NCBI RefSeq assembly: GCF_964204865.1
Contig: NC_135263.1
Location: 11,408,001 to 11,472,000 of the forward strand
Reading direction: 5' to 3'
DNA length: 64,000 nt
From: Styela clava
Taxonomy: Eukaryota
Below the pieces are notes generated by a model, which saw only the letters and a program-made list of their open reading frames with translations, did not search any database and was not told the DNA's origin. The position numbers and the translations under genes are program-made. The stretch's first letter is position 1; each line of letters begins with the position of its first letter. Below are positions 2,714 through 64,000 of the stretch, in pieces.

Positions 2714-3844
2714 TTAGAATTCATCTGTGGATTCATCATCTTTACTATTTTGTTTTGGGAAATCATTAACATCTTCAAACATCTCTAGATCCTCAGCATC
2801 TTGTTTTTCAGAATCTGAATGCTAAAATTAAAGAAGAATTGACAATGCATATCAAAGTCTATATAACACAAATTCAATCAAGATGCATTTTGAAAATAAC
2901 AAAATATATAAAAAAAAATTCAATTAATTGGACAAATTTATCCGTTAAAAGTGTATTTACAACAGCGCATTTCTACAAGGATAAATTGAATAGTACAAAC
3001 AGATTCAGTTTCTGTTGGTCTGTTGCAAACCAGATTAATTTTTGTCTCACCTCGTCAGGTTTGTCGCTGGCTGTGTCATAACCATAACCAACAGCACTGT
3101 TTCTGTAAATGAACAACAATGGAAAAATTGGTAACAGCAATAAAAATGATAGGACAACAATTGAAAGAAAAGGTCGCCCGCTCAGAAACGTTGCAGGACA
3201 AAATAACAAATATAAAGAAACTATTTGATCACAAGAAAGGAGGATAACTTTTTATCCAATTACTACTGCTTCATCGGTTATAAGACGATGGGCCACTTAT
3301 GAGTAGCGGGTATTATAAGGTATTATGACAGGACGTAACCGACTAACGAATGACATAACTCGGACATTGCTGAATTCAGCAATCCTCCCAGTCATTACCA
3401 TGAGTATTACACAAAAAATCCGTCCATATACTAATGATGAATTGTAATCGTACTTATAAAAGTTGAAATATGCAAATTTTATCTTGACCCTAAATGATTG
3501 GCTTATATTGAGAATTTCATTTGTTTGCAAACATGGGAAAAAATATATCTATATATATATATAATATTGTTTTACATATGGCTTGATTGGAGTCTCTTAA
3601 GCTCGTTGCCCTCTTCCGTAATTTGGGTGCCGTGATTGACTATTTTTTCAGCCAAGTTTCCGATGGTCATCATCAATCTTTGGTAGCTCTGGATACTGCT
3701 TTTAAGTTTTGTAACTTCTTTCTCTTTTCCTTCATATTTTTCTTTGTACGGCGTTGGGCATCGTCTGCGTCGACCCCAAGAATTCCCAGTATCGAAAGCA
3801 AGAATTGACAGTAGGACTATTTGGATTAAAAATACGGAATTCAT
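2714..3844 (-). CDS. Cluster gene 1: secreted prepropeptide (142 aa), Lys/Glu coiled-coil subtype
   Basis: Exons 3844-3576, 3102-3051, 2821-2714, all GT-AG, phases 2 and 0. Signal MNSVFLIQIVLLSILAFDTGNS, then WGRRRRCPTPYKEKYEGKEKEVTKLK...SSHI NSAVGYGYDTASDKPDE HSDSEKQDAEDLEMFEDVNDFPKQNSKDDESTDEF*. A further donor (2708) and acceptor (tttttgcag, 2463) indicate a non-coding last exon. Confidence 0.85.
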
Positions 3845-7068: not shown

Positions 7069-8296
7069 CTAGAAATTATTAACATCTTCAAACATCTCTA
7101 GATTATCAGCATCTTGTTTTTCAGAATCAGGGTTCTAAATAAACAAGAATTTACAATGCATATCTCAGTCAATATACCACAAATTTAATCGCGGTGCGCA
7201 TGGTGCGTTATAAACATAACAAAATATATAAAAAAAAAAAGATTCAATTAATTGGATAAATTTATCCGTTCAAGTGTATTTGCAACGTGCTTTCCACAAC
7301 GATAAATTGAAAGGTACAATCAGTATTAGTCACCTCGGCAGGTTTGTCGTCGGCTGTGTCATTACCAATCGCACTGCTCCTGTTAAAATAAATAAACAAC
7401 AATGAAAAAAATGGTAACAGTAATAAAAATGAAGGAAGACAATGGGAAGAAAACGTCGATTGCTCAGAAACGTTGCAGGATAGAATAACAAATAAAAAGA
7501 AACTCCTTGATCACGAGAAAGAGCATATCTTTTTATCCGATCCACACAGCTTCATCGGTTATAGGACAATGGTGGGCTAACTACTTATGCGTAGGTGAAG
7601 TTATTATAACAGGACGGAACCGACCAACGAATGACATAACTTGGATGGACATTGATGATTTCAGCAATTCTCATGGTCATTACCAAAAGCATTACTAAAA
7701 AATAAGCTCACATACTAACGATGTAGCCACACTTTAATTAAATTGAAAGCCTCATTAAAATCCTGTAGTTGTTCAAAATTGAAATCTATTCAATTAGATA
7801 TGTTATATAGTTTTAACATCATGGAAAAATAAAAACACAATAGTAATTGATCCATGCTATGGTTATGTATCTTTTATCAAAATAAAAAATATAATATGTT
7901 CAAATAAAGAGGGTCATGTTGAGTTCAATTATAAAAGTATGCAAATTTTCATATTTACATTGAGAATTTTATTTTTTTGTAAACATGGAAAAGGAAAAAA
8001 TATGTATATATATAAGATTTTTTTTACGTATATCTTGAATGGAGGTTTTTAAGCTCGTTGCCCTCATTCGTAATCTGAGTGCCGTGATTAATTATTTTTT
8101 CAGCCAAGCTTCCCATGGTCATCATCAAGCTTTGGTAGCTCTGGATTCTCTTGTTTAGTTTTGTAACTTCTTTTTCTTTTGCTTCATATTTTTCCTTGAA
8201 CGGTTGTGCGCAACGTCTGCGTCGACTCCAGGAATTTCCAGTATCGAAAGCAAGAATTGCCAGTAAGACTATTTGGATTAAAAACACGGAATTCAT
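7069..8296 (-). CDS. Cluster gene 2: tandem paralog of gene 1 (126 aa; acidic tail shortened by an apparent 1-nt deletion)
   Basis: Exons 8296-8028, 7379-7334, 7134-7069 (GT-AG). MNSVFLIQIVLLAILAFDTGNS WSRRRRCAQPFKEKYEAKEKEV...HSRYT SSAIGNDTADDKPAE NPDSEKQDADNLEMFEDVNNF*. Aligns to gene 1 across exons, introns and flanks. Confidence 0.82.
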
Positions 8297-11276: not shown

Positions 11277-12544
11277 TTATTCTCTCTTCTTGCTTTCTTC
11301 TTTTTCTTTTTCTTCTCTTTCTTCATTTTCTTTAGCTTCAGCAGAATCGTTATCAAACATTTCCTGCTCATCGCTATCGTCTTCAAAGTTGTCTGCTGAG
11401 TCTTCGTCAATCTGTGGTGGAGAAGTGATTAATTGTACACAAATCATACATGCTTGTCTTAGATATCTAATCCGCAAAATAATACACATTTTGACATTTG
11501 CGAATAACAGCAACATGGTATAGATTTTAAATTGCCAATTGTAGGCTGTGTAATGTTGTTCGCTGTGTTGCGGAATCATAATAAAGCTAACACGCGAAAA
11601 ACTTTCACAAAGAAAAGAAATAATCAAAATCCAAAATTAAAAGTTTGAGGGTAGGACCCTAATAATAAAAATGACAAATATGTAATAATATAATATAATA
11701 TAATAAAAATGTCTACCTGGCGTTTAAATTATTATAATGAGAACAGCAAACAAACAATTTAATATTAAGGAAGAACTTTTCAAGTTTCGTATCAGTATCA
11801 GTAAATTTTTGCAAATACACGCCTTATCTTGCCTTGTTTGAACACTAAAATTCTCATAAATAAATAACATTATTTTGCTATATTTCAACATGGCTGCTGT
11901 AGTTCTATTTTGTCTTTTGCTATGACAAGCAAATAAAACTGTTAACTCACTTCTTCGTCATTTAGTATTTCATCGTCAAGTTCATCCTCATCTCCCCAAC
12001 GGCGTGCAATTTTTCTGCAAAATAAAAATAAGGGGGTTTATTTTTGGTGCTTAACCCAGAGAAAAAAGTTGTAAAAAGGGCTTAGAAGAATAGAACTCAT
12101 TCTCATTTCACGATGCTGGTCGCGGCTGTCTATTCAACAATGATCCAAATCTATTTAAAAAACAAAAAAAAATTTGACCTGAGCATAATAATGACATTAT
12201 TTTCAAAAATTAATATGCGACTTTTGCGATTAATTTTCAACCTACATGTTTGTGGTATGGTGTGCTAGCAACTCTCTTCCTATTTTAGTCACTGCTCCTC
12301 CATATTGTAACGCTCTGACCCCCAAACGGTGAATGTACGTGAGCAACTGTGTGTAATGTCTTTGAATGACACTGTATCTTTTTGCTTTCGCTCGATAACG
12401 GTTGAGAATACTATGGTAATGAGCCTTGTAATTGAGATGGCAGGAATGTCTACGACGGCGACGCCTTCTTCGCCACCAGGAGTCGCCACTTTCGAACGCG
12501 AGCATCGCCACAAGCGCCAACACAATCACTAACTTCATCTGCAT
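11277..12544 (-). CDS. Cluster gene 3: secreted cationic His/Tyr/Arg-rich prepropeptide (165 aa)
   Basis: Exons 12544-12246, 12014-11951, 11411-11277. MQMKLVIVLALVAMLAFESGDS WWRRRRRRRRHSCHLNYKAHY...HHTTNI KIARRW-G-DEDELDDEILNDEE IDEDSADNFEDD...KKRE*. Acceptor ctttcag 4 nt before the ATG. Donor 2 nt after the stop, next acceptor at 11028. Confidence 0.88.
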
Positions 12545-14789: not shown

Positions 14790-16007
14790 CTAAACTTCCC
14801 GAACAAAATCTCCAGCTGAAAAAAAATAGAATATCTTCAATGGTAATGACGGTTACAATGGTAAAAAATTGATTTTGAACACAATACTGACCTACGAATC
14901 CTTTTTTTAAATTATTTTCGTTGTTGTAGTTAGGTTAAAAAAATGACTACTGAACCAATTAATCAAAATTATGGCAGTTAATAGGAAAGATAAAACTGTG
15001 GTGTTGTACAAAGTATTGTTAAAGTTTAAATCAGTAACATGCGATAGTTTCAAAATAAAAAATAAAAAAATATATCAAAGTTCCGGGGTGTGCCGAATAT
15101 TTCTAATTACAAATCTTTCAGTAAAGCCTATTTTTAAATTACTTACCATGTTGGGGAAGTCCATTTTCCTGTTTCTCTTCTTTTTCCTCGAACAGATGTT
15201 GATCGTCATTCTCTTCATTGAAGTTGTCTTCTATTGCGTCATTCTGTTTTAGAAAAATATATTTATTGAACATGTCGTCCGGAATGCAGCACTTGGTAGT
15301 TTTTGATGACCACTCTCCATGCAACTGGCCCTCACTTTTCACTCGTTATTTCAAGACAAATCAATTATATCAATGCTTCAAAAGTAGGATTAATGGAATT
15401 TTCTCAATTAAACATCGATATATGTGAATAGTTCTGCTGTAAAAATGAAACTTGACTGTTTATTTGCTTTTGTATATTTATAACTTAATTCACTCTCCCA
15501 AAACTTCTTTGTGTTTAAGTATTGAATTAATAATACCTCACTAAACTTACCATGTTGTCAGAAAACAAGTCATCATCAACTAAATCGTCATCTCCATAAT
15601 GATAGGCAATATGTCTGCAAAATAAAAATAATATAATCAATGAACACTATATTATATCAACAGCAAAAGTTTTATCTTAGGTAAGTGTTAAAACTTTCAT
15701 TAGTTACCACATACCTGTGCCTGGCATGTTGTGACAACAACTGTCTCCCGATTCCGGTCACGTAGCCACCATATCTAACAGCTTTCACTCCAACACCATG
15801 TACGTACGACACTAGAGCTTTATAGTTGGCTAGAACGACTCGGTATTTTGATTGCAACGCTCGGTACAATCTCAGAGTATTCAAATGATGAGATTTGTAC
15901 GCGTTGTAATAACGTCTACTTCTCCTCCGTCTCCTAGACCAGGATTCTCCAGATTCAAAAGCAAGAATTGCCACCAAACCCAACACAAGCAACAATTTTT
16001 TCTGCAT
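14790..16007 (-). CDS. Cluster gene 4: secreted cationic His/Tyr-rich prepropeptide (159 aa), no Cys
   Basis: Exons 16007-15715, 15614-15551, 15243-15147, 14815-14790 (phases 2,0,1; 480 nt open). MQKKLLLVLGLVAILAFESGES WSRRRRRSRRYYNAYKSHH...HARHR HIAYHY-G-DDDLVDDDLFSDNM NDAIEDNF...LPQH AGDFVREV*. The true start is the ATG at 16007, not the TTG used in the ORF track. Confidence 0.9.
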
Positions 16008-19955: not shown

Positions 19956-20855
19956 TTATTCTTCCAAATTCTTCACAATTTGATCAACTTGATCGGCATC
20001 TTCAGCTTAAAATAAAATGAGCAAAATGAATTATTTTTACATAAAAAAAAATAATAAAAATTGGAATAGAAATTATTTATTTTCCTTGTACGTCCTTTAT
20101 AGTACATACCTTCAATGTCATCAATATATTCAGGGAGAGCTGCCACAAGAGAATTCAAATCCATGTTCTACAAAGATAATGTGAGAGTAAATTTCCAATT
20201 ATAGAAGTTCGAGTATTTATTGGCATGATTATTTTAGGTAAAAGTCTATTTGTAAATCTAATGTGATGTCGTTTCAAAATTTACAAAAATCGTGTACAAT
20301 TTTTTGCTATATAAATTTATAAAGCAATATGCAGAAGCTAAGCTGATACCTTATTTAGCAGCATATCTTCATCTTCAAAAGCAGTGCGTCTGAAAATATC
20401 AGTCAATGAATTAATTTGAACACGATATTTGTGCCGGTAGTTACCAGTTAGGCACACTTTCTTGAGCCCTGTCGATCGCAAAGGCCCCACACGGTGTCGC
20501 AATTGTCGAAATGAGCTAAATATAGTACTGAACAGATGGTCCAGGGATCCACGCAAAGTTATTCTTATTGGCATCTTATGGAAAATATTCTCATCGACTA
20601 TTCCATTAAATACCAGTCAACCAACCTTTGTTTGGAAGGCAGAAGATGAGTTTGTTGGTTAAGTTTTTTCAGTGATCTCATCAATGAGTGGTATTCTTTC
20701 TTTATACGGTTGCGTTTCTTCAACAACGCCATATATCTTTGCCGCTCGTTTTTTGTAAGTCGGACTTGACCCTGGTGAATTGAATTACTCACGCTTGCTT
20801 TACTCGCAACAACGGCAAAGATGACAACAAGGGCAAGGGCAATCACAAACTTCAT
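19956..20855 (-). CDS. Cluster gene 5: highly diverged member (125 aa): signal, Lys/Arg-rich helix, acidic tail
   Basis: Exons 20855-20626, 20389-20350, 20167-20110, 20005-19956 (phases 2,0,1; 378 nt open). MKFVIALALVVIFAVVASKA...RLTKNERQRYMALLKKRNRIKKEYHSLMRSLKKL...KQR RTAFEDEDMLLNK NMDLNSLVAALPEYIDDIE AEDADQVDQIVKNLEE*. Last-exon context ttttaag|CTGAAGA is the same as in gene 8. Confidence 0.82.
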
Positions 20856-25095: not shown

Positions 25096-26609
25096 ATGAA
25101 AGTGAGATTCTTGATTCTTTTGGCACTTGTGGCGATCCTCGCCTTTGACGGTGGAGATTCTTGGAGTAGACGTAGAAGAAGAAGAAGACGTTGTCCCCCT
25201 ACATATACATCACAGTACCGCTCAGTGCGGAAACTTTATACTGCTTTGTATACACGCCATGTTAGTGTATTGGGTAAATACAAAGGTTTGCTTGCATTCG
25301 TCCTTCGAGAGGGTAGAAATGCAAAGAGATACGGCTACCAGATGAAAGCTCTTGGACAAAAAATGATTGCTAAGTTCTACAGCTACAGGTGGAACAAATT
25401 TGACATCTTACTTCATTATTTGATGCTAAAATACATATAACAATACTTTTCTTACAACCATATCGCATGGTATTTTTGTAGCAATCATAAACAATGAAAC
25501 AAAGCTAATTCACTCCAGCTGTGTTAATATTGAAATCTTCCGAGCTGTGTCATTTTTATGATCCTATAGAATTACAATAAAAAAATGGCTAATTGCTATA
25601 GTTTGTAAGAAAGTCACTGTATATAGTGATGAACAAGAAGGCAATGCTCAAATATATGGACATGAAAGCCGAAACGAAGTAGTAGCGTAACCACCACCAT
25701 ATGATTGAGATGTTATCACGGAACCACAGCACTCAATTTTTATTTCACGTTTTAATTTCACGTTCATATAATCAAGTTTACTTTCTAAGCGTTTTTGTTT
25801 TCGGTGTATTTCTATGTGACTTTCGATTTTCTTTATAAATATTCTCTTATTCTTTTTACGATTATTTATTACATTTCAGGAAATATGCTTATGGGGATAT
25901 GGAATTTGAGGACGAACCTTTTATAGACGAGGTAGCAGCGAGTAATATGTTGAGTTTTATACTTTGTAGGATCTGAAGTTTAAATTAGCTAATTCCATTT
26001 ACCAATTGCTATATTTATATTTATCAAGTGTCTTCCCAATCATTATTACTGATTATTTTATCCAAATCTTTGGAAACCCAAATATTTAATATATTTCTAT
26101 TCGGTAATCTTCTATTACAAAAAGTTAAAATCCTACAAAGATGTTATATAAAAAAATACTAATACGTTTGTTTTTCCTCACTCAGAGCCATGATTTCGAC
26201 GATGATAATATCAGTGAACAAGTCAACGATGATCAGGACATGTTTCAGGATTCAGAAGATTTTTCTGAAAACGAGGACGAAGAAGAAGTCAAGCAACTAC
26301 CCGATGAAGGTAACAAACCAAATGAATATATAAAAATACAACCATCTTGAATTTTTTTTATCCTAATGAGACACTAAACTTTGCTGTCGATCGATCGTAA
26401 CAATTTGTACTACAAACGTTATGAGATGAGTGAAGAATTTAAACAAATATTAAATTGCACAATTCAATCTCAAATCCGATCGCGGAGTGCGCCCGGTCCT
26501 AACAAAATCATAAAATTATGATAAACAGGACCAATTAAATGACAATTTCTTTTTATATTAAGTGCAAGACACCGATTCAAACGTGATAGAATCTCATAAA
26601 AAAGAATAA
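25096..26609 (+). CDS. Cluster gene 6: secreted cationic Tyr/Arg/Lys-rich prepropeptide (171 aa)
   Basis: Exons 25096-25388, 25880-25931, 26186-26309, 26563-26609 (phases 2,0,1; 516 nt open). MKVRFLILLALVAILAFDGGDS WSRRRRRRRRCPPTYTSQY...FYSYR KYAY-G-DMEFEDEPFIDE SHDFDDD...LPDE VQDTDSNVIESHKKE*. Confidence 0.88.
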
Positions 26610-33972: not shown

Positions 33973-34354
33973 GCCTGCTAAAACGCTTAAAAACAGTGAA
34001 AAACCGTCAAAAAACACCCAGAACCCTGCTAAACGCTTAAAAACAGTGACCAACCGTCAAAAAACACCAAGAACCCTGCTAAAACGCTTAAAAACAGTGA
34101 AAAAACGTCAAAAAAACACCAAGAACCCTGCTAAAACGCCTAAAAACAGTGAAAACCCGTCAAAAAACACCAAGAATCCTGCTAAAACGCTTAAAAACAG
34201 TGAACAACCGTAAAAAAACACCAAGAACCCTGCTATAACCCTTAAAAACAGTGAAAAACCGTCAAAAAACACCAAGAACCCTGCTAAAACGCTTAAAAAC
34301 AGTGAAAGCCCGTCAAAAAACACCAAGAACCCTGCTAAAACGCTTAAAAACAGT
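33973..34354. repeat. 51-bp minisatellite, about 7.5 copies
   Basis: Unit aaccctgctaaaacgcttaaaaacagtgaaaaaccgtcaaaaaacaccaag; lies inside the CACTA element. Confidence 0.95.
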
Positions 34355-35872: not shown

Positions 35873-36998
35873 ATGAAAGCACGATTCTTGATTCTTTTGG
35901 CACTTGTGGCGATCCTCGCTTTTGACGGGGGGGATTCTTGGTTTAGTCGTAGACGACGAAGGCGTCACTGCGCACCATCATTCAAATCAAGCTACTACGC
36001 ACTACTGAGGCATTATCGTGCCATGTATAGACGCCACATTCACGTACTGCATATGTACAGAGGTTTGGTTTCATTCGTCCTTCGAGAGGGTAGAAATGCA
36101 ATGAAATACGGTAACGATGTGAGAAATCTTGGGCGAAAAATGATTGCTCAGTTCCACAAACACAGGTAAAAAAAATTTTCTAAGCCTGACGATTAGAAAA
36201 CCGTCAAAATATTTTTCCACCACAGGGCCGCATGATATTTTCGCAGCAATCAAGACCATCCTCCAGCTATGTTTTCAAGTTTTGTGAACCAATAAACATG
36301 CGAATAATGATGTTGTGCAGTCCCCATATATTTTGAAAAAATTATCATGAAATATACTAATACTACGTGTTTATATCCTTTATATAAATATTTATTACAT
36401 TACAGACAATATACTGGCGATATAGAATTTGAAGACAAAACTTTCATGGACGAGGTAATAGAGAAAATATGTTTTAGACTTATTAGGATTGAATTTAACT
36501 GTCAATTACTATATTTATATACATCTATATTACCAAAACTTTAATCGCAACAAGTATCTTACATAAAAAAATACGTTTATTCTTGCTATCTTAGAGCCAT
36601 GATTTTGACGATGAGAAGTTCGATGAACAAGATATCGATGATCAGGACATGTTCCAGGATTCAGAAGATTTTGAAAACGAAGACGAGGAAGAACTCAAAC
36701 AATTATCCGGTGAAGGTAACAAAACATTACCAACAAACCAATTAAACAATAAAATATTTTGAGCTTTTTGTCATCTCAATAGGACGATAGTATTTGAGGT
36801 AACATCACGATTTTTTTAAACAAAACTGATAAATTACATTGATTTTAAAAGTTAGATTTATTTGCATTATTCAAACTCAAACTGGATCAGGCCCGATCCT
36901 AATTATAAACCCAAGGCTCTTTTAGAATATTATTTATTTTTTATTATTAAGTGGAAGACACCGATCAAAACATCCACGAGACTCAACAAAGAGAATAA
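35873..36998 (+). CDS. Cluster gene 7: paralog of gene 6 (169 aa)
   Basis: Exons 35873-36165, 36406-36454, 36595-36715, 36952-36998 (510 nt open). MKARFLILLALVAILAFDGGDS WFSRRRRRRHCAPSFKSSYY...FHKHR QYT-G-DIEFEDKTFMDE SHDFDDEKF...LSGE VEDTDQNIHETQQRE*. Confidence 0.9.
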
Positions 36999-40224: not shown

Positions 40225-43200
40225 TCACCCCATGTGATTCTTGTATATACCCGAACATGATAAATATTGATTTGATCATTTGTTCTTTGTTGTTGGTATT
40301 TTCAGTTCATGGAAATCAGACAGAAGAGAACATGAACCAAAAATGGATAACTGAATCATTCGTGAAAATGACCACGCCTACCATATCTTGTGTTGGGGGC
40401 TTGGGGCAGGCATATAAGTGAGTACAATCCTATGGGATACAAAATGCACAACAGGTCCCAATAGCCCATTGCAAGTCATGTAGTATACAAAATAAAGCGT
40501 GACATTTGACATTTTACCACACGGAAGCGGAACTGATTACATAACCTTTCGCTTAAAATGTCTTATCCGTGCAATAATGTGTTTCTGTATCCTGCACAAA
40601 TGTCACTAAATGAGGGAGGAAAATGATAAATGAGGGAGGAGCACACTCTCTGTGGTCTCACCCCATGTGATTCTTGTATATATAGCTACTAACCCCCAAA
40701 GGTACCCCATTTCATGTTGAAATCATCATGACAAAGTTAATTTTTCCCAAAATTCGAACAAAGACTTTCGTAGGAATCAAATTACACCAGGTTTAGGAAC
40801 ATAACAGGTTCCATCCAGTCATTATCAAATTAAAATCTATATTCTCAAGACCTTTGGCACTGATTGAAATAATTATATCTAAGTTCCCATCCGTACGATG
40901 TACATAATTACCCTTGTTGAGATAATAGGAATTTCTGTTTATAACGTGAATCACGAGCTCACGTTTACAGTATTTAATAAGGTTTATGATCAACGTATAA
41001 ATACGACTCCGATATCTTTCGATAAGGAGAGAGAAGACGATGTAAACCATTCAAAGCGAGTGTGGATAAGTGTTTTAAGATTTGTATTCTGTGTGTTGTG
41101 GAAATTTACAAATAAAAACATATAGAGATTTTTAACGCATCTTCATTCACGTGAAGCTGAAGGGTGAACGGGTGACTTGCAAGTCAGAGACAATCTACGA
41201 AATAGCAATATACGGTAACATCACATTCATCTAACAATCATTTATGCTATATATATACCCAAACATGATAAATATTGATTTGATCATTTGTTCTTTGTTG
41301 TTGGTATTTTCAGTTTATGGGAATCAAACAGAAAAGAACATGAATCAAAAATGGATAAATGACTCATTCGTGAAAATGGCCACGCCTACCATATCTTGTG
41401 TTGGGGGCTTGGGGCGGGAATATAAGTGAGTACAATCCTACCTTGCTGGGCTACAAAATGCACAACAGGTTCACGTCGAAGACGAGTCGATAATTGAGCA
41501 ATTTCCGGCACATCAATAAGGTCGATATTTTGCAAGTATGGTCTATAGATAAGTTATAGAACTCGCTAAAAATTATTCGTGTTTTTATGCTAGGTAATAT
41601 TACACCATATTGCAACAGTACAACTTAACCGAAATACCGGTAGGTGCTCGCCACTAATACAGTCTAGTAATACTGTAATAATTAGTTCAGAAGATCCAAG
41701 GTGCTGCAGAGACACACAAATAGGTTCGAAGTTCACGATGCAAACGAAGAGACTTTATTAAAATAGTGTAAAATCCACGCTCAAAGCAGATAAAATAAGA
41801 GCGACAAAATACGGTCATTACCAAGCGACAGCAGAAGCAAGAAGAGTGACACTGCGAATCCGCAGCAACGGTTCACATATGCAGTGGTGGTTGGAGTCGA
41901 GTAACTGAAACCAACTGTCCGGCAAATTAGGGCTCAGACTCCACACACCAATGCCTATGCAATACCTAGACACTAAATATAAATAAAATACAAAATAATA
42001 AAAAATAGGACAATTCCAGTCCCGCCACAATATCATGGTTGCGTACATTCTGAGAATCCTACATAAAATTCTTCAACTTACCCTTCATGAGGTAAATGGC
42101 AGAATACTACCAAACAGTCTACCGGCAACGACCCAATAGCCCATTGCAAGTCATATAGTATACAAAATAAAGCATGACATTTGACATTTTACCACACGGA
42201 AGCGGAACTGATTACATAACCTTTCGCTTAAAATGTCTTATCCGTGCAATTATGTGTTTCTGTATCCTGCACAAATGTCACTAAATGATAAATGAGGGAT
42301 GAGCACACTCTCTGTGGTCTCACCCGATGTGATTCTTGTATATACCCAAACATGATAAATATTGATTCGATCATTTGTTCTTTGTTATTGATATTTTCAG
42401 TTTATGAAAATCAAACAAAAAAGAGCATGTCCAAAAATGGATAAATGACTCATTCGTGAAATTGACCACGCCTACCATATCTTGTGTTGGGGGCTTGGGG
42501 CAGGCATATAAGTGAGTACAATCCTACCTTGGTGTGATACAAAATACACAACAGGTTCACGTCAAAGACGAGCCCATAATTGAGCAATTTCTCGCACAAC
42601 AGTAAGGTCGATATTTTGCAAGTAAGGTCTATAGATGAGTTATAGAACTCGCTAAAAAATATTAGTTTTTTTATGCTAGGTAATATTACACCATATCGGG
42701 GTTACGTACATTCTGAGAATCTTACATAAAACTCTTCATATTATCCTTCATGAGGTAAATGGCAGAATACTACCAAACAGTCTACCGGCAACGACCCAAT
42801 AGCTCATTGCAAGTCATATAGTATACCAAATAAAGCATGACATTTGACATTTCACCACACGGAAGCGGAACTGATTATATAACCTTTCGCTTAAAATGTC
42901 TTATCCGGGCAATAATGTGTTTCTGTATCCTGCACAAATGTCACTAAAAACATTGTTAAAGTATAAATTAGTCAAGAAGTTGAACCTCTAAACTGCAAAC
43001 TACAAATCATTTTGTACGGCACGCAATGGGAGGTTTGCCCATTCGTTTTTTTTATGCTAGGTCATATTACACCATATCGTAGTTGCGTACATTCTGAGAA
43101 TCTTACATAAAACTCTTCATATTACCCATCATGAGGTAAATGGCAGAATACTACCAAACAGTCTACCGGCAACGACCCAATAGCTCATTGCAAGTCATAT

Positions 43201-43420
43201 AGTATACAAATAAAGCATGACATTTGACATTTCACCACACGGAAGCGGAACTGATTACATAACATTTCGCTTGAAATGTCTTATCCGTGCAATAATGTGT
43301 TACTGTATCCTGCAAAAATGTCACTAAAAACATTGCTAAAAGTATAAATTAATCAAGAAGTTGAACCTCTAAACTGCAAACTACAAATCATTTTGTACGG
43401 CACGCAATGGGAGGTTTGCC
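40225..43420 (+). repeat. Multiplied upstream modules of gene 8 (putative promoter/first-exon block x3, downstream block x4)
   Basis: gttgggggcttggggc..TATAAGTGAG block at 40413, 41421 and 42507; one copy at gene 9 (51726). cccaatagc.cattgcaagtc...gtcactaaa block at about 40457, 42132, 42795 and 43176; one copy at gene 9 (about 52335). Confidence 0.85.
41611..42029 (-). mobile_element. Probable solo LTR (419 bp)
   Basis: TG...CA ends and a 4-bp TSD ATAT. The empty site (acaccatatcg...gtacattctgag) is visible at about 42690 and 43070. AATAAA on the minus strand near 41755. Confidence 0.7.
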
Positions 43421-44105
43421 CATTTTTACTGGCGCGTAATAATATAGCAACCATTCGGTATATGGTTTCAGTATGCATTAGCATTTAGTGGTTGTACTTG
43501 AATTTACTACCGATTGAGTATACAGCACCTTGCGATGAGCAAGTTCTCATAAAATAAATTATTATCCATATCTACCTGTAGGAAATGCTTATCATAAAAA
43601 TGTGAAACGAGTGAATCAAATAGGATTTTACACCCGTTTCATATACTATAACAATATGAAGGTTTTTACTGGCGCGGTGAGAGTGCCAATGTGACAAAGT
43701 TGCTCTTTTTAATTAAGCATTTTTAATGAGAATTAAAATTAGATTTTTAGTAATGTGAATTTGGTAACGCGTATTAAGCATTTTTAATGAGAATCATAAA
43801 TAGATTATAGTAATGTGAATTTGGTATCGTGCTTTTATTTCAATTCTTAAAAGACCATACGATTAAAGCACTCGTGTACTGAATATTTCAACATACAGAG
43901 ATTGGCATTACTTGCACACACGCAATCTCGCCAGTCAGGTTATATTACGCTATGAACAGCCCATCCTGACAAGTTCATGTGAATTTAAACACACTCCAAA
44001 AGAAGCACTTTGAAAAGGACACAATATCACTATTGTTGGCTAAATTTCTTATCAGCTTTTTACAAGGTGAATTCTATTTTTTAGATTGTGTAATATCGAA
44101 CAAAT

Positions 44106-45516
44106 ATGCAAACCAAATTGTTGATTGTTCTTGGTCTTGTGGCGATTCTTGCCTTTGAATGTGGTGATTCCTTTTGGAGAAGAAGGCATTACAGAAGAAG
44201 ACATCACTGTTCCTACTCCTACAAGGCTCACTACTATTCCATCCTGAGGCACTATCATACTGTCAACTCAAGATACCACGTCATCTTGAGGAATTACAGG
44301 ATCCTTGTCAATTACATACATCACGTTGGCGTCAAAGCACTCCGATACGGAGGCCACGTGACTGCCATAGGAAGACAACTTCTTCATCAGTATTCCAGAC
44401 ACCAGTAAGCAATCCCCGATCAATATTAGTGTGTTTAATATGAAAATAGACGGCGCTTTTAACAATTAAAGTCTTTGTGCCGAACAATATTAGTGGCACA
44501 CAGATTAATGTCGAGATGCCAAGGATAAAAAGTTTAATTTCTAGAATTAAAAAAAGTTTGTAATACCCTCTTTTCTACAATTTAGGAATGAAAATTCTAT
44601 ACTGTTTGTGCTATCTTCTACCCCAAAATTAAAAACTGTATTTTAATTGAATTTTCGGAATTTTTATCTAATAATCACCCCGCCTAACGTTCTCAAAATA
44701 AGATCGTATTTTTCGGTTTTATGTATATTTGCCAAAATAAGTAGCCCTCTTTGACGTGTGTAGCTGAATGAACGTAATTTTGCACCAACTACTAGATTCT
44801 AAGTATTACGAAATGCGTTGATTGAGGATTGTTATATATTCCGAGCCAATAAAATTTGAAAATTTATCATATTTCAGCCATATATCTCATGTCTACGGAG
44901 ATGAAGAAGATATCGAAGAGAGTGATCTTTTTGCCGAAAAAGATGTTCGTAAATTTATTTTTATTTGAATAAAATTTGGAAGTCATTTACCGTTTCAAAT
45001 AAATCGAAATATGCCAACTTTGATCTCATGTTTTAAATTATTGACAACAAAATCAAGATGTGACGTTATATTCACGATAACCACCATAATGATGTCAAAT
45101 ATCTTTAACTTTAACCACAATGCTTTACTACTTGCATTCAAAAGAATGCTCACTATATATATGTCCGAGAAGAACGAGTATTGATATATATAAAATATCA
45201 TTGTACGTTAAGAATATTCGAACTGATAAAAATAAATAATATTGATCTTACATAAACTTTATCAACAGAATGATAGTTTCGAACAAGAATTTGATGACCA
45301 GAACGATGATCGGGATATGGTCGAAGACTCTGAAGATATGAGTGAAAACGAAAATGAAGAAGACCTGAAGGAACTCCCCGAAAAAGGTGAACATATTTAA
45401 GTTGTGTTACTTGTGTTGTAAAAGGATTGATGATTGTTGTTAAGCCTTTGATTTGAATGATTTTCTTATTTTAAGCTGAAGACGTCAACAAGGATCATAA
45501 TCTCAACGACAAATAG
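44106..45516 (+). CDS. Cluster gene 8: His/Tyr-rich, clavanin-reminiscent prepropeptide (174 aa)
   Basis: Exons 44106-44404, 44878-44944, 45269-45386, 45476-45516 (525 nt open). MQTKLLIVLGLVAILAFECGDS FWRRRHYRRRHHCSYSYKAHYY...YIHHVGVKALRYGG...YSRHH HISHVY-G-DEEDIEESDLFAEKD NDSFEQEF...LPEK AEDVNKDHNLNDK*. Confidence 0.9.
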
Positions 45517-53081: not shown

Positions 53082-54447
53082 ATGCAAACCAAATTGTTGA
53101 TTGTTCTTGGTCTTGTGGCGATTCTTGCCTTTGAGGGTGGTGACTCCTTTTGGAGAAGAAGGCGTCGTAGAAGAAGACATCACTGTTCCTACCCGTACAA
53201 GGCTCACTACTATTCCACCCTGAGGCACTACCGTACTGTCAGCTCAAGGTACCACGTCATCTTGAGGCATTACAGGATACTTGTTAATTACATACATCAC
53301 GTTGGCGTCAAAGCACTCAGATACGGAGGCCACGTGACTTCTATAGGAAGACAACTTCTTCATCAGTATTCCAGACACCAGTAAGCAATACCCGAACAAT
53401 ATTAGTATATATGTGTAATATGGCAATTTAATAATTATAGTCTTTTCGACCAAGAATGAAGAGTTTCGTTACTAGAATTTAAAAAAGTTTGTAATACCAT
53501 CATTTCTACAATTTAGAAATGAAAATTCCATACTGTTTGTTCTCTCTTCTACCCCAAAATTAAAAACTGTTTTTGAATTAAATTTTCGGAATTTCTATCT
53601 GGTAATCACCCAGACTAACGTTCTCAAAATAAGATCGTATTTTTCAGTTTTATATATATTTGGAAAATGAGTTGCCCTCTTTGGCGTGTGTAGCTGAATG
53701 AACGTAATTTTGCACCAACTACTAGATTCTAAGTATTACGAAATGCGTTGATTGAGGATTGTTATATATTCCGAGCCAATAAAATTTGAAAATTTATCAT
53801 ATTTCAGCCATATATCTCATGTCTACGGAGATGAAGAAGATATCGAAGAGAGTGATCTTTTTGCCGAAAAAGATGTTCGTAAATTTATTTTTATTTGAAT
53901 AAAATTTGGAAATCAGTTATCGTTTCAAATAAATCGAAATAGGCCAACTTTGATCTCATGTTTGCCTAGTTTTAAGTTACTGACAACAAAATCAAGATGT
54001 AACGTTATATTCACCATAATGATGTCAAATATCTTTTACTTTAAACTTTAATCACAATACTTTACTACTTGAGTTCAAAAGAATGTGCTTACTATATATG
54101 CCGAGTAGAACAAGTAATGATATAAAATATCATTGTACGTTAAGAATAATCGAACTTATTAAAATAAATATTATTGATCTTACATAAACTTTATTAACAG
54201 AATGATAGTTTCGAACAAGAATTTGATGACCTGAACGATGATCAGGATATGTTCGAAGACTCTGAAGATACGAGTGAAAACGAAAATGAAGAAGTCCTGA
54301 AGGAACTCCCCGAAAAAGGTGAACATATTTAAGTTGTGTTACTCGTGTTGTAAAAGGTTTGATGATTGTTCTTAAGACTTTGATTTAAATGATTTCTTAT
54401 TTCAAGCTGAAGACGTCAACAAGGATCATAATCTCAACGACGAATAG
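53082..54447 (+). CDS. Cluster gene 9: recent paralog of gene 8 (174 aa)
   Basis: Exons 53082-53380, 53808-53874, 54201-54318, 54407-54447, the same lengths as gene 8. Nine amino-acid differences in exon 1; exon 2 is identical. Confidence 0.9.
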
Positions 54448-57820: not shown

Positions 57821-58540
57821 CAGGGGTCCGCAACCCCCGGCACGCGTGCCAGTCATGGCACGCGACGAGATTTTATATGGCACGCGGCGTCGTGAACATT
57901 TTTCCAAAAAAAAACATGATTTAAAATGTTAAAATATTGAAAATAAATAACCGTACATGCGGTGCAAAACGCGTGGTTATTTTTGCTTTGTTTTATTGAT
58001 ACGTCAATATAATTTTTTTCAATATTTTCACGACATTATTGCCCGCTTTCATGCTGGTATTTGCGTTTTATTACCAATTTCAAGAATTGTTGATCTGCTG
58101 TGAAAATGTCGTTGACAAATTAAACGTCATTTTAAAACCTACACACAAAAAACTGACTGAGAAGAATGAAGCTTTTAAAAAGGATCTTTCACGTTTCAAA
58201 AAAGCAAAGTAGTATTTTCAACAAAAGTCATTCTCAGTGGAATTCAAAGTACGGAAAGTGGCCATAAAATGCAGACTGTATCGCTAATCGTTGGAAGCCT
58301 TTTACCGTTGGTAATTTCATTAAAAAGTATTTATCAATTGTTTCGAAGTTCTCTTTGAGAATGTGCCAAATAAAAATGTCATTCTCTCAAGAAATTAAAA
58401 TCACCCAGTGTCTGCTCTGAGTGAGAAAAAACAAGGGCAGGTATCTTACTAAAACCTAGGGTTATTGTGAATATTTCTTTGTATATTACTCGTGTTGTTT
58501 CTCGATGAGGTAACGGTGGTAACGGTTTGATATTAAACAA
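57821..58540. mobile_element. Truncated hAT-like element (one end only)
   Basis: Begins CAGGGGTCCGCAACCCCCGGCACGCGTGCCA. The same end type occurs inverted at 49860-49889. No matching second end; right boundary approximate. Confidence 0.55.
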
Positions 58541-58542
58541 GC

Positions 58543-59640
58543 TTCTTATTTTAAGCTGAAGACGTCAACAAAGATCAGAATCTCAACGACGAATAGTCTG
58601 CTACAAGAAGAGTCCTGCAAGACAAAATCTGACCTGGAACCGAAACTGAAACAAATGTTGCCTATAGATAGCTCTATGCGTTCATAAACCATACTTATAC
58701 TTTTTTTTTCATTATTTCTTAAACGTGAAAGTGTCATTGGCTGCATAATCATAAATATACTGCATAAAAAAAGTTCTGACAAGATCTTTTATTAGCTCAA
58801 AAATCAGTGTCAGTGTTGCTTCTCAATAACATGTCCTGTTCAATGAAAGGACACGTTGGATTGTTGGATTCAGCTTTATTAAAACAAATTGCACGCCACA
58901 AAATTGGGTAAGATGATATCGAATATACAGCAATATATATGTCAAGTCGGGGTATATTCGTTTAGTCTTCTGTGTATTTAATCTCCAAAATACAATACAA
59001 ATAACAGCAAAATGTTTCAGGCAACGTTATCGAAATAGATGAAAAGCCTTTTGGTATGTTGGATAGTCGTTTTCAAACGGAGTTTAACACTTGCCCACGG
59101 TGATATAAAGACATTGACTGCAAAATAAAATGAATGGTTGAATATAATTTCGATGAATACCAAAACCAATTTAGCAACGACTACGTCTTACGATAGAATT
59201 GATTGAAATCATTTATATATATATAATTCTTTCGAAACTTACCGTAGGTTGTGCAGCATGCAGGGGTATGGCATGCAGTGGAATCGGCTTATTTTTATTT
59301 GTTACTGAATTTCGAGTTCGAAGACGAACATTTGCAGGTACCACAGCAGCATTTACAGAGCACATAAACAGTAAGAAGGAATAAGAAGGCAATTCCAGAT
59401 GCAAATAATTTTGCATGCCTTCGAACACGACCTAGAATAGGTAAAAAGTAAATCCAGATAAAAACACTTATGTATTTTCAAATCATCATTTTCAAGTTAT
59501 TCACATAACTAAATATAGATGTGTTTTATTTTAGTTTAACCCATGTTAAAGACACGCTTGAAAAAAGGGCGAAAGAAATTCATAAATAAAGACTATGGCG
59601 ATATGCAAGGCCTTCGTTTACGCGTTCACAAAAATGTTAA
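58543..59640 (+). pseudogene. Orphan last exon and 3' flank of a gene 8/9-type copy
   Basis: ttttaag|CTGAAGACGTCAACAAAGATCAGAATCTCAACGACGAATAG (58556-58596) is followed by about 1 kb matching 54448-55560. No upstream exons are visible; the preceding DNA is hAT-like. Confidence 0.8.
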
Positions 59641-59642
59641 TA

Positions 59643-59647
<5 letters not shown>

Positions 59648-59715
<68 letters not shown>
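59648..59715. repeat. (TA)n microsatellite
   Basis: About 34 uninterrupted TA units. Confidence 0.98.
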
Positions 59716-59717
<2 letters not shown>

Positions 59718-62335
59718 AATACGGTAGTTAAGTAGACATACCGTGCTAAAAAAGCGACAGTTATGTAGACGGAAAAATTGGGTAGACATTTTCCTGTCCG
59801 CTTAATTATTCCACGTTCCATAATTAAAACGTTTTGCGATATTTTGCTGAAATCTCTTTTTCTCTGATAAAACAGTATCAAAAATAATATGTTCTTTCAA
59901 TATTTTTTAAATAATAGCACATTTTCGCCAACTTTAATGGGACAGTAGTTCTGCTGGTTTATAATCAACGGGTTTAATTTTCGTACATAAAGTGGACATT
60001 TTATTTATGCAAAAATCTTTTAATTTTTCGGTATATGTTTTTACGATTTTTGGAGAGTAGGTTTGATAATTTTGATACAATAACCAGGCAGAACATGAAG
60101 ATCGTCCGTTCTGTTTTTTGCAATATAAGCTCAATAAACTGAAAAGGACCTCAATTCACACTCCGTACTAAAGAGGCTTTGTGTCGCAATAGTAAAACTG
60201 TCGGGTTCGCCGAGAACTTTGCCGTTTGCCGTTTACCACGTTTGCCGTTTTGTTCGCAAGTAACCTGGGCGCCGTGAGGGGATTGGGATCTTCATGAGTG
60301 CGTGATTGCCGAAATTTAGATAAAATAGAACAGTTGTGTTTGGAGAAGCGTTCCAAGTCTTTTGTGTCAGGTGTTATCAGTTACCCAGTGAATTGAAGTC
60401 GAGTCATAATAACTTGAAACAAGGATTTCAACGTCACCGAGGAATGCTGCTGGAAATCATCACTCATCGGATAAGGTGATTAGTCATAACGATTTTTAAT
60501 ATTAGGGTTACTATATTTTTGGTGTTGAGATTTTTCACGTAATCCAGATTATCAAAATTTAGACCATCAAAATAATGATACGACTGGGTTTGCGTTTGTA
60601 AAAGTGTGTAATTCAGAAGGATTCCAAATCCAGACGAAAATACAAACGAAGAATGTGAAAATTCAATGAATTCAATTTTTTGTCGAAAAAGAAGGATATA
60701 CGAGAAGTGAGTGGTTGACGTTTGTATAGTTTGGTGTAAATAAAAATATCTAATACACCGCTCCATATTAGATTAAAATATTTCCTCTTCGGAAAACAGT
60801 TTTGAAGAATTGCATTGCTAGCAATTTTGTTTTGTGATTTGGCACATATCCCTGAGTTATTTTACCATCCTCATCTAGTTATTTACTGGGCTGTATTTTT
60901 TGTTCACATTTAGGTGACTCTCCAACGAGATGGCCCACGTTTCAGAACTTGGCAGACGGAAATGCGGGTAGTGATTCGGAGAAAGCTGTGCCAGGAGGTG
61001 ACTAAATGAGTTTGCTATGCTTGTTTTTTTATTAAATACGGTATCGTAAATTGATACCAATGAATGGTAATAAACCAAATCATAATATCATTTGTAGCCC
61101 ATCACAAATAGCGCAGCTATCTACGAATAATTGTAGTGCACCGTTTAGAAACCTGGTTTATTTGAGTAATAATGCAATTATCCATTTCAAACATTTCGTT
61201 TGTTCGATCAATCAAGAGTAGCGTAATTCTGAATTGGACTAAAACACTGTGATGATGTTTCGTGACTTATGCATGTATTTTTGACCAAAGTTTCAGATAA
61301 GTCAACAGAGTATACCGCACCATCTTCAGAGTCACTTTCAATAAGCAATGTAAGTGATTTCAAAGAAAACCATATATATGGAAAAGAAAAATGCTGTAAA
61401 TCAATTCAAAAAAAAGCTTCTAAACAAAAGCGAACCAGAAAAGAAACTACGAAAGAAAAATAATTGCACGGATTGGTATATCTTGTGAGAAGTTTATTGT
61501 AAAGCTTTAAGACATCTCTGTATAATTCATAAAGATGAACCGGCAGTGAGCATAATCTTGTCTCTCCTCAACAACTTAACCTAGTGGGCATATCCACATT
61601 CGTATACATACTTGGCACACATTTTTACTATTCAATTATAAATTCAAAATAACAATCATGTTTTTGTATTCCGAGTTGGTGAAAAAATTTTAAATAAATT
61701 GTGCAAAGATTCTAAATTGGTATTGAGGTTCAATAATTTCATTTTGATCGCTTGTATAGTTGACTGTATAATCAATCACTGCTATAATTAGGCGCCCTGA
61801 TAGGTTGACATTTGAGTTATAATTGGTGTAATGTTTCTCATTTTAGTTGACATGGCAAAATTTCGTTTCGCATTCATAGGCCCCATTGAAAACGTCCCTT
61901 AATTGAACATTTGAGATATGTTGTGTATAATGTTTCTCGATATTTTATTCAGAATTTCGTGTTTTAATTACATACCTTCTGAAATGGTTGAAATTTTTTT
62001 TGACTGCTTCTCAATATTATTGCCATTCCAAAATATCATTTTGCATTTACATGACACACTTACGTAGCTAAGTAGATGACGATTTGCGATTTATTTTCTG
62101 TTTTGTTTTTCAATATGGTTTCAAAATTTTGTTTTATAATATTTGTCACTCTCAAGTTATCGGATAGGTGAACAGAGATAAATTTTGAGCAATTTTCCAC
62201 AACATCAAAATATGATTAGTATTCGAAATTTCGTATTTCAGTTAAATTTCACACACTGTGAAGTGTAAGTGTGTGAGATATATTTTGTGTAAGATTTCTC
62301 AATACGATTCCAGAATTTTGTTTCAATAGTTGTAT

Positions 62336-63730
62336 GCCACACTTAGGTGGTCGGATATGCGGACATTTGAGATATATATTTTGTGTAATGTTTCTCAAAA
62401 TTATTTCAGAATTTTCATTTCAATTTTTGCATGTCCACACTTAGGTGGTCGGATAGGTGGACATTTGAGATATACTTTGTGTAATGTTTCTCAATATGAT
62501 TTCAGAGTTTTCATTGTGATTGTTTTATGCCACACTTAGGTGGTCGGATAGGTGGACATTTGAGATATACTTTGTGTAATGTTTCTCAATATGATTTCAG
62601 AGTTTCCATTGTGATTGTTTTATGCCACACTTATGTGGTCGGATAGGCGGACATTTGAGATATATTTTGTGTAATGTTTCTCAATATTATTTCAGAATTT
62701 TCATTTCAATTTTTGTATGCCCCACTTAGGTGGTCGGATAAGTGGACATTTGAGATATATATACTTTGTGTAATGTTTCTCAATATGATTTCAGAGTTTT
62801 CATTGTGATTGTTTTATGCCACACTTAGGTGGTCGGATAGGTGGACATTTGAGATATACTTTGTGTAATGTTTCTCAATATTATTTCAGAATTTTCATTT
62901 CAATTTTTGTATGCCACACTTAGGTGGCCGGATAGGTGGGCATTTGAGATATACTTTGTGTAATGTTTCTCATTACGATTTTGGAATTTTCATTTTAATG
63001 TTTCATGCCACACTAAGGTGGCCGGATAGGTGGACATTTGAGATATACTTTGTGTAATATTTCTCAATATGATTTCAAGAGTTTTCATTTTGATTGTTTT
63101 ATGCCACACTTAGGTGGTCGGATAGTTGGACATTTGAGATATACTTTGTGTAATGTTTCTCAATATGATTTCAGAAGTTTCATTTCAATTCTTGTATGCC
63201 ATACTTAGGTGGCCGGATAGGTGGACATTCGAGATATAGTTCGTGTAATGTTCTCAATATGATTTCAGAATTTTCATTTTTATGTTTATTGCCACACTTA
63301 GGTGGCCGGATAGGTGGACATTTGAGATATATTTTGTGTGATGTTACTCAATATGATTTAAGAATTTTCATTTAAATGTTTAATGCCACACCTAGGTGGC
63401 CGGATAGGTAGACATTTGAGATATACTTTGTGTAATGTTCCTCAATATGATGTCAGAATTTTCATTTCAATTTTTGTACGCCTCACTTAGGTGGCCGGAT
63501 AGGTGGACATTTGAGATATACTTTGTGTAATATTTCTCAATATGATTTCAGAATTTTTATTTCAATTCTTGTACGCCACACTTAGGTGGCCGGATAGGTG
63601 ACATTTGAGATATATTTTGTGTAATATTTCTCAATATGATTTCAGAATTTTTATTTCAATTCTTGTACGCCACACTTAGGTGGTCGGATAAGTTGACATT
63701 TGAGATATATTTTGTGTAATGTTTATCAAT
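62336..63730. repeat. 95-bp satellite, about 14-15 copies (decayed copies from about 61790)
   Basis: Unit gccacacttaggtggtcggataggtggacatttgagatatactttgtgtaatgtttctcaatatgatttcagagttttcattgtgattgttttat. Confidence 0.96.
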
Positions 63731-64000
63731 ATTATTGGAATGCCATAATTTTGACTTGGTATTGATATCTTGACACTCACAACATAGCATCTGTTTAATC
63801 TATATGTTGCACCATAGGGTTGGAATAGGCGAACATTTGTGATATGCTCTGTGTATTTCTCAGTTTCAAATATATAACACGTTCGGATCAATTTGTTTCG
63901 ATTTGTCTACCTTCACGTTGCATTTCGAGTATTTTTTGATATGGAAGATTATTTCCAACACCAAACAAAGTGCATCTCCCTTGCACGAAAGACTGAACAT

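Follow-up and report, generated by a model that had tools for sequence, protein, structure and literature searches.

Gene 8 and the C18 cluster

The window, a 64-kb stretch of contig C18 in the 377-Mb genome of Styela clava, contains nine related reading frames. One of these, a 100-codon frame at 44106–44408 on the forward strand, is just the first exon of a four-exon gene, designated gene 8, which corresponds to RefSeq LOC120341366 (174 aa); in a homolog search, the frame was 100% identical to this protein over the query, and the protein extends for 75 further residues beyond exon 1. The gene has the following features.

44106–44404, + strand: exon 1 (residues 1–99 plus 2 bases), with a phase-2 GT donor; joint 44404>44878
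44106–44171, + strand: signal-like peptide, residues 1–22 (hydropathy 2.08), with a putative cleavage site
44178–44210, + strand: poly-Arg/His patch (residues 25–34) and Cys35, which is nearly invariant in the family and absent in gene 4
44214–44402, + strand: predicted long helix, residues 37–99, continuing to residue 106 in exon 2 and carrying the heptad face
44878–44944, + strand: exon 2, encoding the helix end, Tyr106-Gly107-Asp108 and the start of the tail (net charge -8); ends in phase 0
44894–44902, + strand: Tyr106-Gly107-Asp108, putative cleavage and amidation site; Gly107 is invariant in 11 of 11 aligned rows
45269–45386, + strand: exon 3, acidic tail (net -16); ends in phase 1
45476–45516, + strand: exon 4, coding to the stop (net -2); RNA-type contigs run to about 45704

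The joints 44404>44878 and 44944>45269 were present in contigs of all three RNA-type runs (from three studies) and the joint between exons 3 and 4 in contigs of two of the three, the RNA-type status of a run being our guess (nine runs were so guessed, none of them recorded as RNA). A fourth run, with DNA-like cover of the introns, had none of the gene 8 joints. Some RNA-type contigs carry gene 9 letters, and three X1 contigs agree with exon 1 of gene 8 at every letter. These splice joints make the 100-aa frame an exon, and it was therefore rejected as a complete protein. A phase-2 donor lies at or near the end of eight of the nine window frames; that of gene 5 is a candidate donor.

The other members in the window are as follows.

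3576–3844, - strand: gene 1 exon 1; Tyr-poor and Glu/Lys-rich, core four residues shorter, period 3.48
8028–8296, - strand: gene 2 exon 1; gene 1 type, period 3.49
11277–12544, - strand: gene 3; three coding exons (exon 1, 12544–12246), four Tyr, Trp-Gly-Asp site
15147–16007, - strand: gene 4; exons 1–3 (exon 1, 16007–15715), without Cys
19956–20855, - strand: gene 5, a divergent member or a neighbour; candidate exons in phases 2, 0 and 1, acidic tail
25096–26609, + strand: gene 6; four coding exons (exon 1, 25096–25388)
35873–36998, + strand: gene 7; four coding exons (exon 1, 35873–36165)
53082–54447, + strand: gene 9; near-copy of gene 8 (91% identity) with the same four exons

Gene 5 has a different signal, lacks both the poly-Arg patch and Gly-Asp, and is missing from the database matches. 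Four further genes lie in the 40 kb upstream of the window and none was seen in the 40 kb downstream; together with the nine genes of the window, these give a C18 cluster of at least 13 genes. Of the four upstream genes (C18:11387808, 11393465, 11399084 and 11401070; L022–L024), two are of the gene 1 type, and the other two are shorter and keep the register with Tyr at intervals and with small residues.

Several further observations were made on the cluster. Exon 1 of genes 8 and 9 differs by seven silent and nine replacing codons, exon 2 by none, and exons 3 and 4 by six replacing codons and no silent ones. A leftover of a gene 8/9 3′ end, from about exon 4 onwards, is found at 58526–59649 of the window (73–82% identity), with no exon 1 match nearby. 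An acceptor-like triplet precedes the ATG by 3–21 bases in seven of the nine window genes (genes 3–9) and by 0–7 bases in the styelin, clavanin and C3 genes, and it could reflect trans-splicing or a first exon that carries no coding sequence. Tandem repeats occur at 33974–34354 (period 51), 42666–43424 (period 381) and 62274–63732 (period 95), as well as at 43712–43826 (period 61), about 280 bases upstream of gene 8.

Relatives outside the cluster

Seven proteins matched at E ≤ 0.01 among 2137 candidates, all of them from Styela clava and all named "uncharacterized"; the C18 genes are already annotated in RefSeq, but as uncharacterized. A representative library gave eight matches, from which we dropped P0021 and P0022, ENA repeat proteins without the signal–helix–tail layout. 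P0020, an unnamed protein, keeps both the precursor layout and the register, and because its long matches to the C18 genes are at most 34% identical, it probably belongs to another species. A search for relatives of P0020 returned only P0020 itself among 73 candidates.

P0023 (LOC120342944, on C3) has the family signal and poly-Arg patch, but these are joined to a 50-residue styelin-like helix. Used as a query, it gave 24 matches, including clusters at C3:16.14–16.22 Mb and C3:7.75–7.78 Mb. The first (C3:16142285–16218770; L007–L019, L036–L043) holds about ten exon-1 copies with the family signal and poly-Arg start, some styelin-like, as P0023 is, and others with a very short exon 1 of about 40 codons; these copies may be undescribed defence peptides. 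The second (C3:7750266–7776300; L030–L033) comprises four genes with the same start and with amphipathic helices rich in Arg, Lys, Val and Gly, whose period, measured for three of them, is 3.61–3.78; in the copy at 7770660, a stop follows 45 codons.

Other searches gave no relatives. Nothing in Pfam rose above cut-off for the nine exon-1 frames or the nine full proteins, and none of 54 candidates of 176–2000 aa was a longer homolog, which is weak evidence. Against the PDB, a sequence search returned seven rows, the best of which (E = 0.59, a designed four-helix maquette) was not significant, and Foldseek, for which a single helix is a poor query, gave no matches. Two queries of the ESM Atlas yielded no usable match, a result that indicates neither novelty nor absence. 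In the titles and abstract openings covered by our literature search, with subscription journals mostly outside it, no long heptad peptides or C18-type cluster was found for Styela, and a search by accession prefix gave no match.

Anatomy of the precursor

Across the seven relatives, mean identity is 0.55 in the signal and 0.28 in the helix. AlphaFold2 drew residues 37–106 of gene 8 as a single unbroken helix (pLDDT 83–90 over residues 41–100, pTM 0.30) followed by a disordered tail; its input was a shallow alignment of 11 rows, from which long single helices are readily drawn. Residues 23–107 carry a net charge of +15 and contain 15 His and 12 Tyr, and the acidic tail of 67 residues has a net charge of -26. 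The same layout recurs in all nine database proteins, with +7 to +22 in the cationic part and -11 to -29 in the tail. The family precursors are 127–174 aa long, and their putative mature parts are 73–84 residues long; that of gene 8 would be a peptide of 84 residues, 10.6 kDa and pI 10.8. The Gly at position 107 is followed directly by Asp in seven of the nine family proteins and preceded by Tyr in six. Thus, as read from its sequence, gene 8 appears to contain each element of a signal, a cationic amphipathic helix, a Gly-Asp boundary and an anionic pro-region.

Eight of the nine family proteins have furin-type Arg sites in the poly-Arg patch, and gene 8 has none; the His-Tyr break in the poly-Arg run and the Cys in the signal are found in gene 8 alone when it is compared with gene 9.

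The helix had also been proposed to be long enough to span a membrane. Over 19 residues, hydropathy peaks at 0.49 in the mature part of gene 8, compared with 2.08 in the signal, which speaks against a span by a monomer. Across all nine mature parts, the best window is 0.15–0.92, and the signals reach 1.70–2.08; a monomeric transmembrane helix was therefore rejected.

A conserved heptad face

The original prediction described a Tyr heptad followed by a Gly heptad in gene 8. All of the residues that it named are in place: Y43/Y50/Y57/Y64/I71, with I46/V53/I60/L67/V74 three residues later, and G75/G82/G89 with A78/V85/L92. Genes 3 and 9 do keep four Tyr in register, and genes 4, 6 and 7 keep three Tyr and one His, the His being at position 43 in gene 4 and at position 57 in genes 6 and 7. 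The three Gly are retained in all six Tyr-type genes (3, 4 and 6–9). Genes 1 and 2, overlooked in that prediction, have Ala75, G82, G89 and Y64. Both patterns are thus present. Because A78/V85/L92 continue the Tyr register (71 + 7), the stripe extends as a single series over eight heptads. The face of the gene 8 helix therefore reads Y43-Y50-Y57-Y64-I71-A78-V85-L92, with apolar residues at +3 and a +4 series that ends in G75-G82-G89.

We assessed chance in two ways. First, in shuffles that keep composition, four Tyr at a spacing of seven had p = 0.013 in gene 8, 0.008 in gene 9 and 0.001 in gene 3, and three Gly at that spacing had p = 0.003–0.019 across the six Tyr-type genes; the shorter unbroken Tyr runs of the His-interrupted genes were not significant (0.07 in gene 4, 0.32 in gene 7 and 0.62 in gene 6). 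These tests are post hoc, because the residue and the spacing were picked after they had been seen. Second, conservation, which is the better test of the heptad, was compared among the seven positions x to x+6 over residues 39–96 in the seven relatives. Mean identity was 0.50, 0.38 and 0.42 at x, x+3 and x+4, and 0.15–0.20 at the other four positions, a contrast that was matched by 2 of 20000 column shuffles (best of seven registers). The fraction of apolar or small residues was 0.90, 0.76 and 0.70 at these three positions and 0.18–0.38 elsewhere. The opposite face of the helix is variable and cationic.

Coiled coil or straight helix?

The hydrophobic period separates the sequences into three ranges: 3.48–3.50 in gene 1 (3.48), gene 2 (3.49) and P0020 (3.50); 3.53–3.56 in the six Tyr-type genes; and 3.61–3.78 in four of the five shorter C3 relatives, control segments that were delimited by eye and could contain some intron read-through. 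The fifth control, C3:16142285, gave no clear helical peak, and the gene 5 segment, cut to 26 residues, was uninformative.

Might the helix then be an ordinary amphipathic antimicrobial helix, longer than usual or trimmed, which acts as a monomer at surfaces and owes its heptad look to helical periodicity and common ancestry? We consider this quite unlikely. Gene 8 itself (period 3.54–3.55) has about equal power at 3.5 and 3.6 (5.6/6.1 and 5.9/5.4 in two computations), as an ordinary helix could have, and over its roughly 60 residues a heptad period of 3.5 and a straight-helix period of 3.6 are not separable. The sole indel of the core, of four residues, is about one turn and would be tolerable in a plain helix. 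Residues 64–75 align with the styelin-like core of P0023, the Ile-His-His-Val-Gly stretch is also present in a clavanin gene, and the furin-type Arg sites of the other eight family proteins are likewise consistent with this reading. Against it stand the period of 3.48–3.50 in genes 1, 2 and P0020, with clearly lower power at 3.6 (9.4/3.9, 9.1/3.6 and 7.2/3.4 at 3.5/3.6, respectively), the retention of particular Tyr, Leu and Gly residues among sequences that are about 30% identical overall, and the narrowness of the apolar stripe.

The period of the Tyr-type genes fits heptads with one stutter, yet it is also near that of a straight helix. In genes 1 and 2, the core is four residues shorter, and an unbroken a/d series runs through both conserved Gly; the gene 8 sequence can be read as this a/d series plus one four-residue stutter near residue 60, which would account for the shift of period in the Tyr-type genes. 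Three points weaken this reading, namely that a plain helix also tolerates one turn, that P0020 has a period of 3.50 without the deletion, and that gene 8 is too short for 3.5 to be told from 3.6. The autocorrelation of residue classes at lag 7 was no higher than in the short relatives (0.29 vs 0.36), and the median hydrophobic moment of the long helices (0.28–0.38) was lower than that of the styelin-like P0023 (0.49).

A conserved face opposed to a variable cationic one fits a coiled coil, which is the likely reading of the gene 8 helix on this sequence evidence. The prediction of an oligomerising coiled-coil helix is supported in part: the period, the AlphaFold2 model and the conservation favour an extended helix that keeps one face for packing, and in our judgement the helix quite probably associates with itself through that face. 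A core that uses three positions and is lined by small residues along one half tends towards tight bundling or a higher oligomeric order.

Proposed mode of action

What might such a peptide do? We propose, with a probability of about 0.5, that gene 8 encodes a styelin-type defence precursor, from which an 84-residue peptide is cut at Tyr-Gly-Asp, bundles as a coiled coil, and attacks or traps microbes. In this process, the signal would route the precursor to secretory granules, likely those of haemocytes, where the acidic tail (net -26) could mask the helix (net +15, 15 His) during storage. Cleavage before Asp108 would be followed by the consumption of Gly107, leaving a Tyr-amide end. The helices would then pack through x, x+3 and x+4; bulky Tyr would occupy the first half of the interface, Gly would let the chains approach closely in the second, and the bundle might be locked by a Cys35–Cys35 bond, as in dicynthaurin. 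The outward Arg/His face would bind anionic microbial surfaces, and some Tyr might, like those of styelin D, be converted to DOPA by hydroxylation.

A structural cross-linker, in place of an antibiotic, is the main rival reading, though an unlikely one. According to this scheme, granulocytes would release coiled-coil rods in which Tyr is converted to DOPA and, together with His, binds metal or is oxidised by phenoloxidase, so that wounds are sealed, tunic is hardened or trapping nets are built. Tyr accounts for 12 and His for 15 of the 84 residues in the putative mature peptide of gene 8, and the fact that one face is conserved down to residue identity fits self-assembly better than contact with lipid. 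The Tyr that precedes the conserved Gly in six of the nine family proteins recalls the catechol amines reported for plicatamide and morulin Pm (PMC3039461); DOPA-protein fragments have been proposed to link tunicin fibres (PMC5465252), and botryllin, described in extracellular nets, has been suggested as a phenoloxidase substrate (PMC9966394). However, the gene 1 type has three or four Tyr and P0020 five, Tyr within a packed core would be poorly exposed, and the precursor layout is that of proven microbe-killing peptides. The gene 1 type is also weakly cationic (net +6 to +8); being Tyr-poor as well, it may not share a single function with the rest of the family, which suggests that the members of the C18 family differ in job.

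The defence and cross-linking roles are not mutually exclusive. We speculate, as a rather unlikely combination of the two, that a styelin-type precursor was lengthened into self-assembling coiled-coil rods with DOPA (from Tyr) and His aligned every seven residues, and that blood cells release these rods to build cationic fibres or nets, cross-linked through catechols, in which microbes are killed or trapped and by which the tunic is sealed. If so, the C18 genes would be the missing precursors for DOPA polypeptides of the ferreascidin or morulin type, and we infer that the terminal Tyr-Gly could be the source of a C-terminal catechol amine.

It is highly improbable that the family serves outside defence, whether it compacts cellulose or sulfated polysaccharide (in gametes, tunic or mucus nets, for instance) or packs the contents of granules. 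Strongly cationic rods would bind any polyanion, but the tandem expansion, the faster divergence of the helix than of the signal, and the styelin-like layout all favour the defence precursor.

The ascidian defence peptides listed in the reviews consulted have 8–37 residues per chain. The three Styela clava clusters, which have one signal and poly-Arg start in common, form a series within a single genome, with about 50 residues in the styelin-like peptides and 84 in the heptad helices. Such a series lets one ask by what route a short helix that acts on membranes turns into a rod that assembles itself. Because the peptides can be synthesised, their oligomeric state, their killing at sea-water salt and their catechol cross-linking are directly testable. 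If DOPA were present, there would be genes to assign to the DOPA polypeptides of ascidian blood, which are known from their chemistry. A screen described as restricted to precursors of 50–100 residues without Cys (PMC7387483) would miss the C18 family.

Comparison with known systems

How is the family related to the known peptides of ascidians? The true styelins lie on C10 and the clavanins on C1; the gene 8 cluster lies on C18. No match to Pfam Styelin (PF17562) or Clavanin (PF05452) was obtained for any of the seven Styela clava cluster proteins or for P0020, and P0023 scored 11.3 bits on PF17562, against a cut-off of 27. The family nevertheless resembles the styelins in several respects. 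First, all seven family genes compared and the one styelin gene have a phase-2 intron followed by a phase-0 intron, with the conserved Gly in exon 2, and in the styelin gene the exon with Gly-Asp is followed by an acidic one; we estimate that the phases alone would agree by chance in about one case in ten, and the third intron differs, being in phase 1 in the family and in phase 0 in the styelin gene. Second, the signal is 22 residues long in both, and the two are 35% identical across 26 columns, with a modest probability of 69.8; signal peptides resemble one another anyway. Third, the styelin and clavanin genes found in the Styela clava genome likewise place Gly-Asp after the mature peptide, and published accounts describe styelins and clavanins as cut before Asp, Ciona precursors as ordered signal, cationic, anionic (PMC7387483), and both styelins and clavanins as amidated (PMC10608444). 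The original prediction had set the helix apart from short helical antimicrobial peptides. Its length and register do so, but its precursor layout and first two intron phases are those of the styelin gene.

The family also differs from the styelins: it has a mature part of 73–84 aa rather than 31–37, no Pfam match, another chromosome, a heptad face, poly-Arg patch and single Cys, and no KHK motif, which is given as a styelin feature (PMC9966394). P0023 stands between the styelins and the family, with an hhalign probability of 98.8 and with the signal, the poly-Arg patch and intron phases 2 then 0 in common; the match comes mostly from the signal, poly-Arg patch and acidic tail.

Clavanins and clavaspirin likewise combine a His-rich cationic helix, a Gly-Asp boundary and an acidic tail, and short motif likenesses, such as the Ile-His-His-Val-Gly stretch, occur in the Styela clava clavanin gene. 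In contrast to the family, clavanins are peptides of 23 residues, with the mature peptide and the tail encoded in one exon at the C1 locus.

Dicynthaurin and halocidin of Halocynthia aurantium, reported as single-Cys disulfide dimers (PMC10608444), are helices with one disulfide and a possible model for Cys35, through which a dimer may form; their chains have 15–30 residues, and they are set beside the family by description only. Ferreascidin, morulin Pm and plicatamide, compared here by their described chemistry, are rich in aromatic residues and His, as is the gene 8 peptide. The C-terminal dehydro-DOPA or dehydro-TOPA amine described for plicatamide and morulin Pm (PMC3039461, in which styelin D is also said to carry DOPA) may be set against the C-terminal Tyr-Gly of the gene 8 peptide. 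Human dermcidin DCD-1L is a long helical defence peptide reported to form a helical bundle and, with Zn, a hexamer (PMC5654962); it is anionic and has 48 residues, and the likeness is a functional analogy with no evidence of homology.

Botryllin of Botryllus schlosseri, whose precursor of 158 aa falls within the 127–174 aa of the family, is by analogy the closest worked example for the mode of action proposed for gene 8: it has been described as styelin-like, stored in morula-cell granules, able to kill microbes and present in extracellular nets (PMC9966394). Our best reading of the sequences is that the gene 8 family represents a long, probably bundling variant of the styelin-type precursor, outside both the styelin and the clavanin families.
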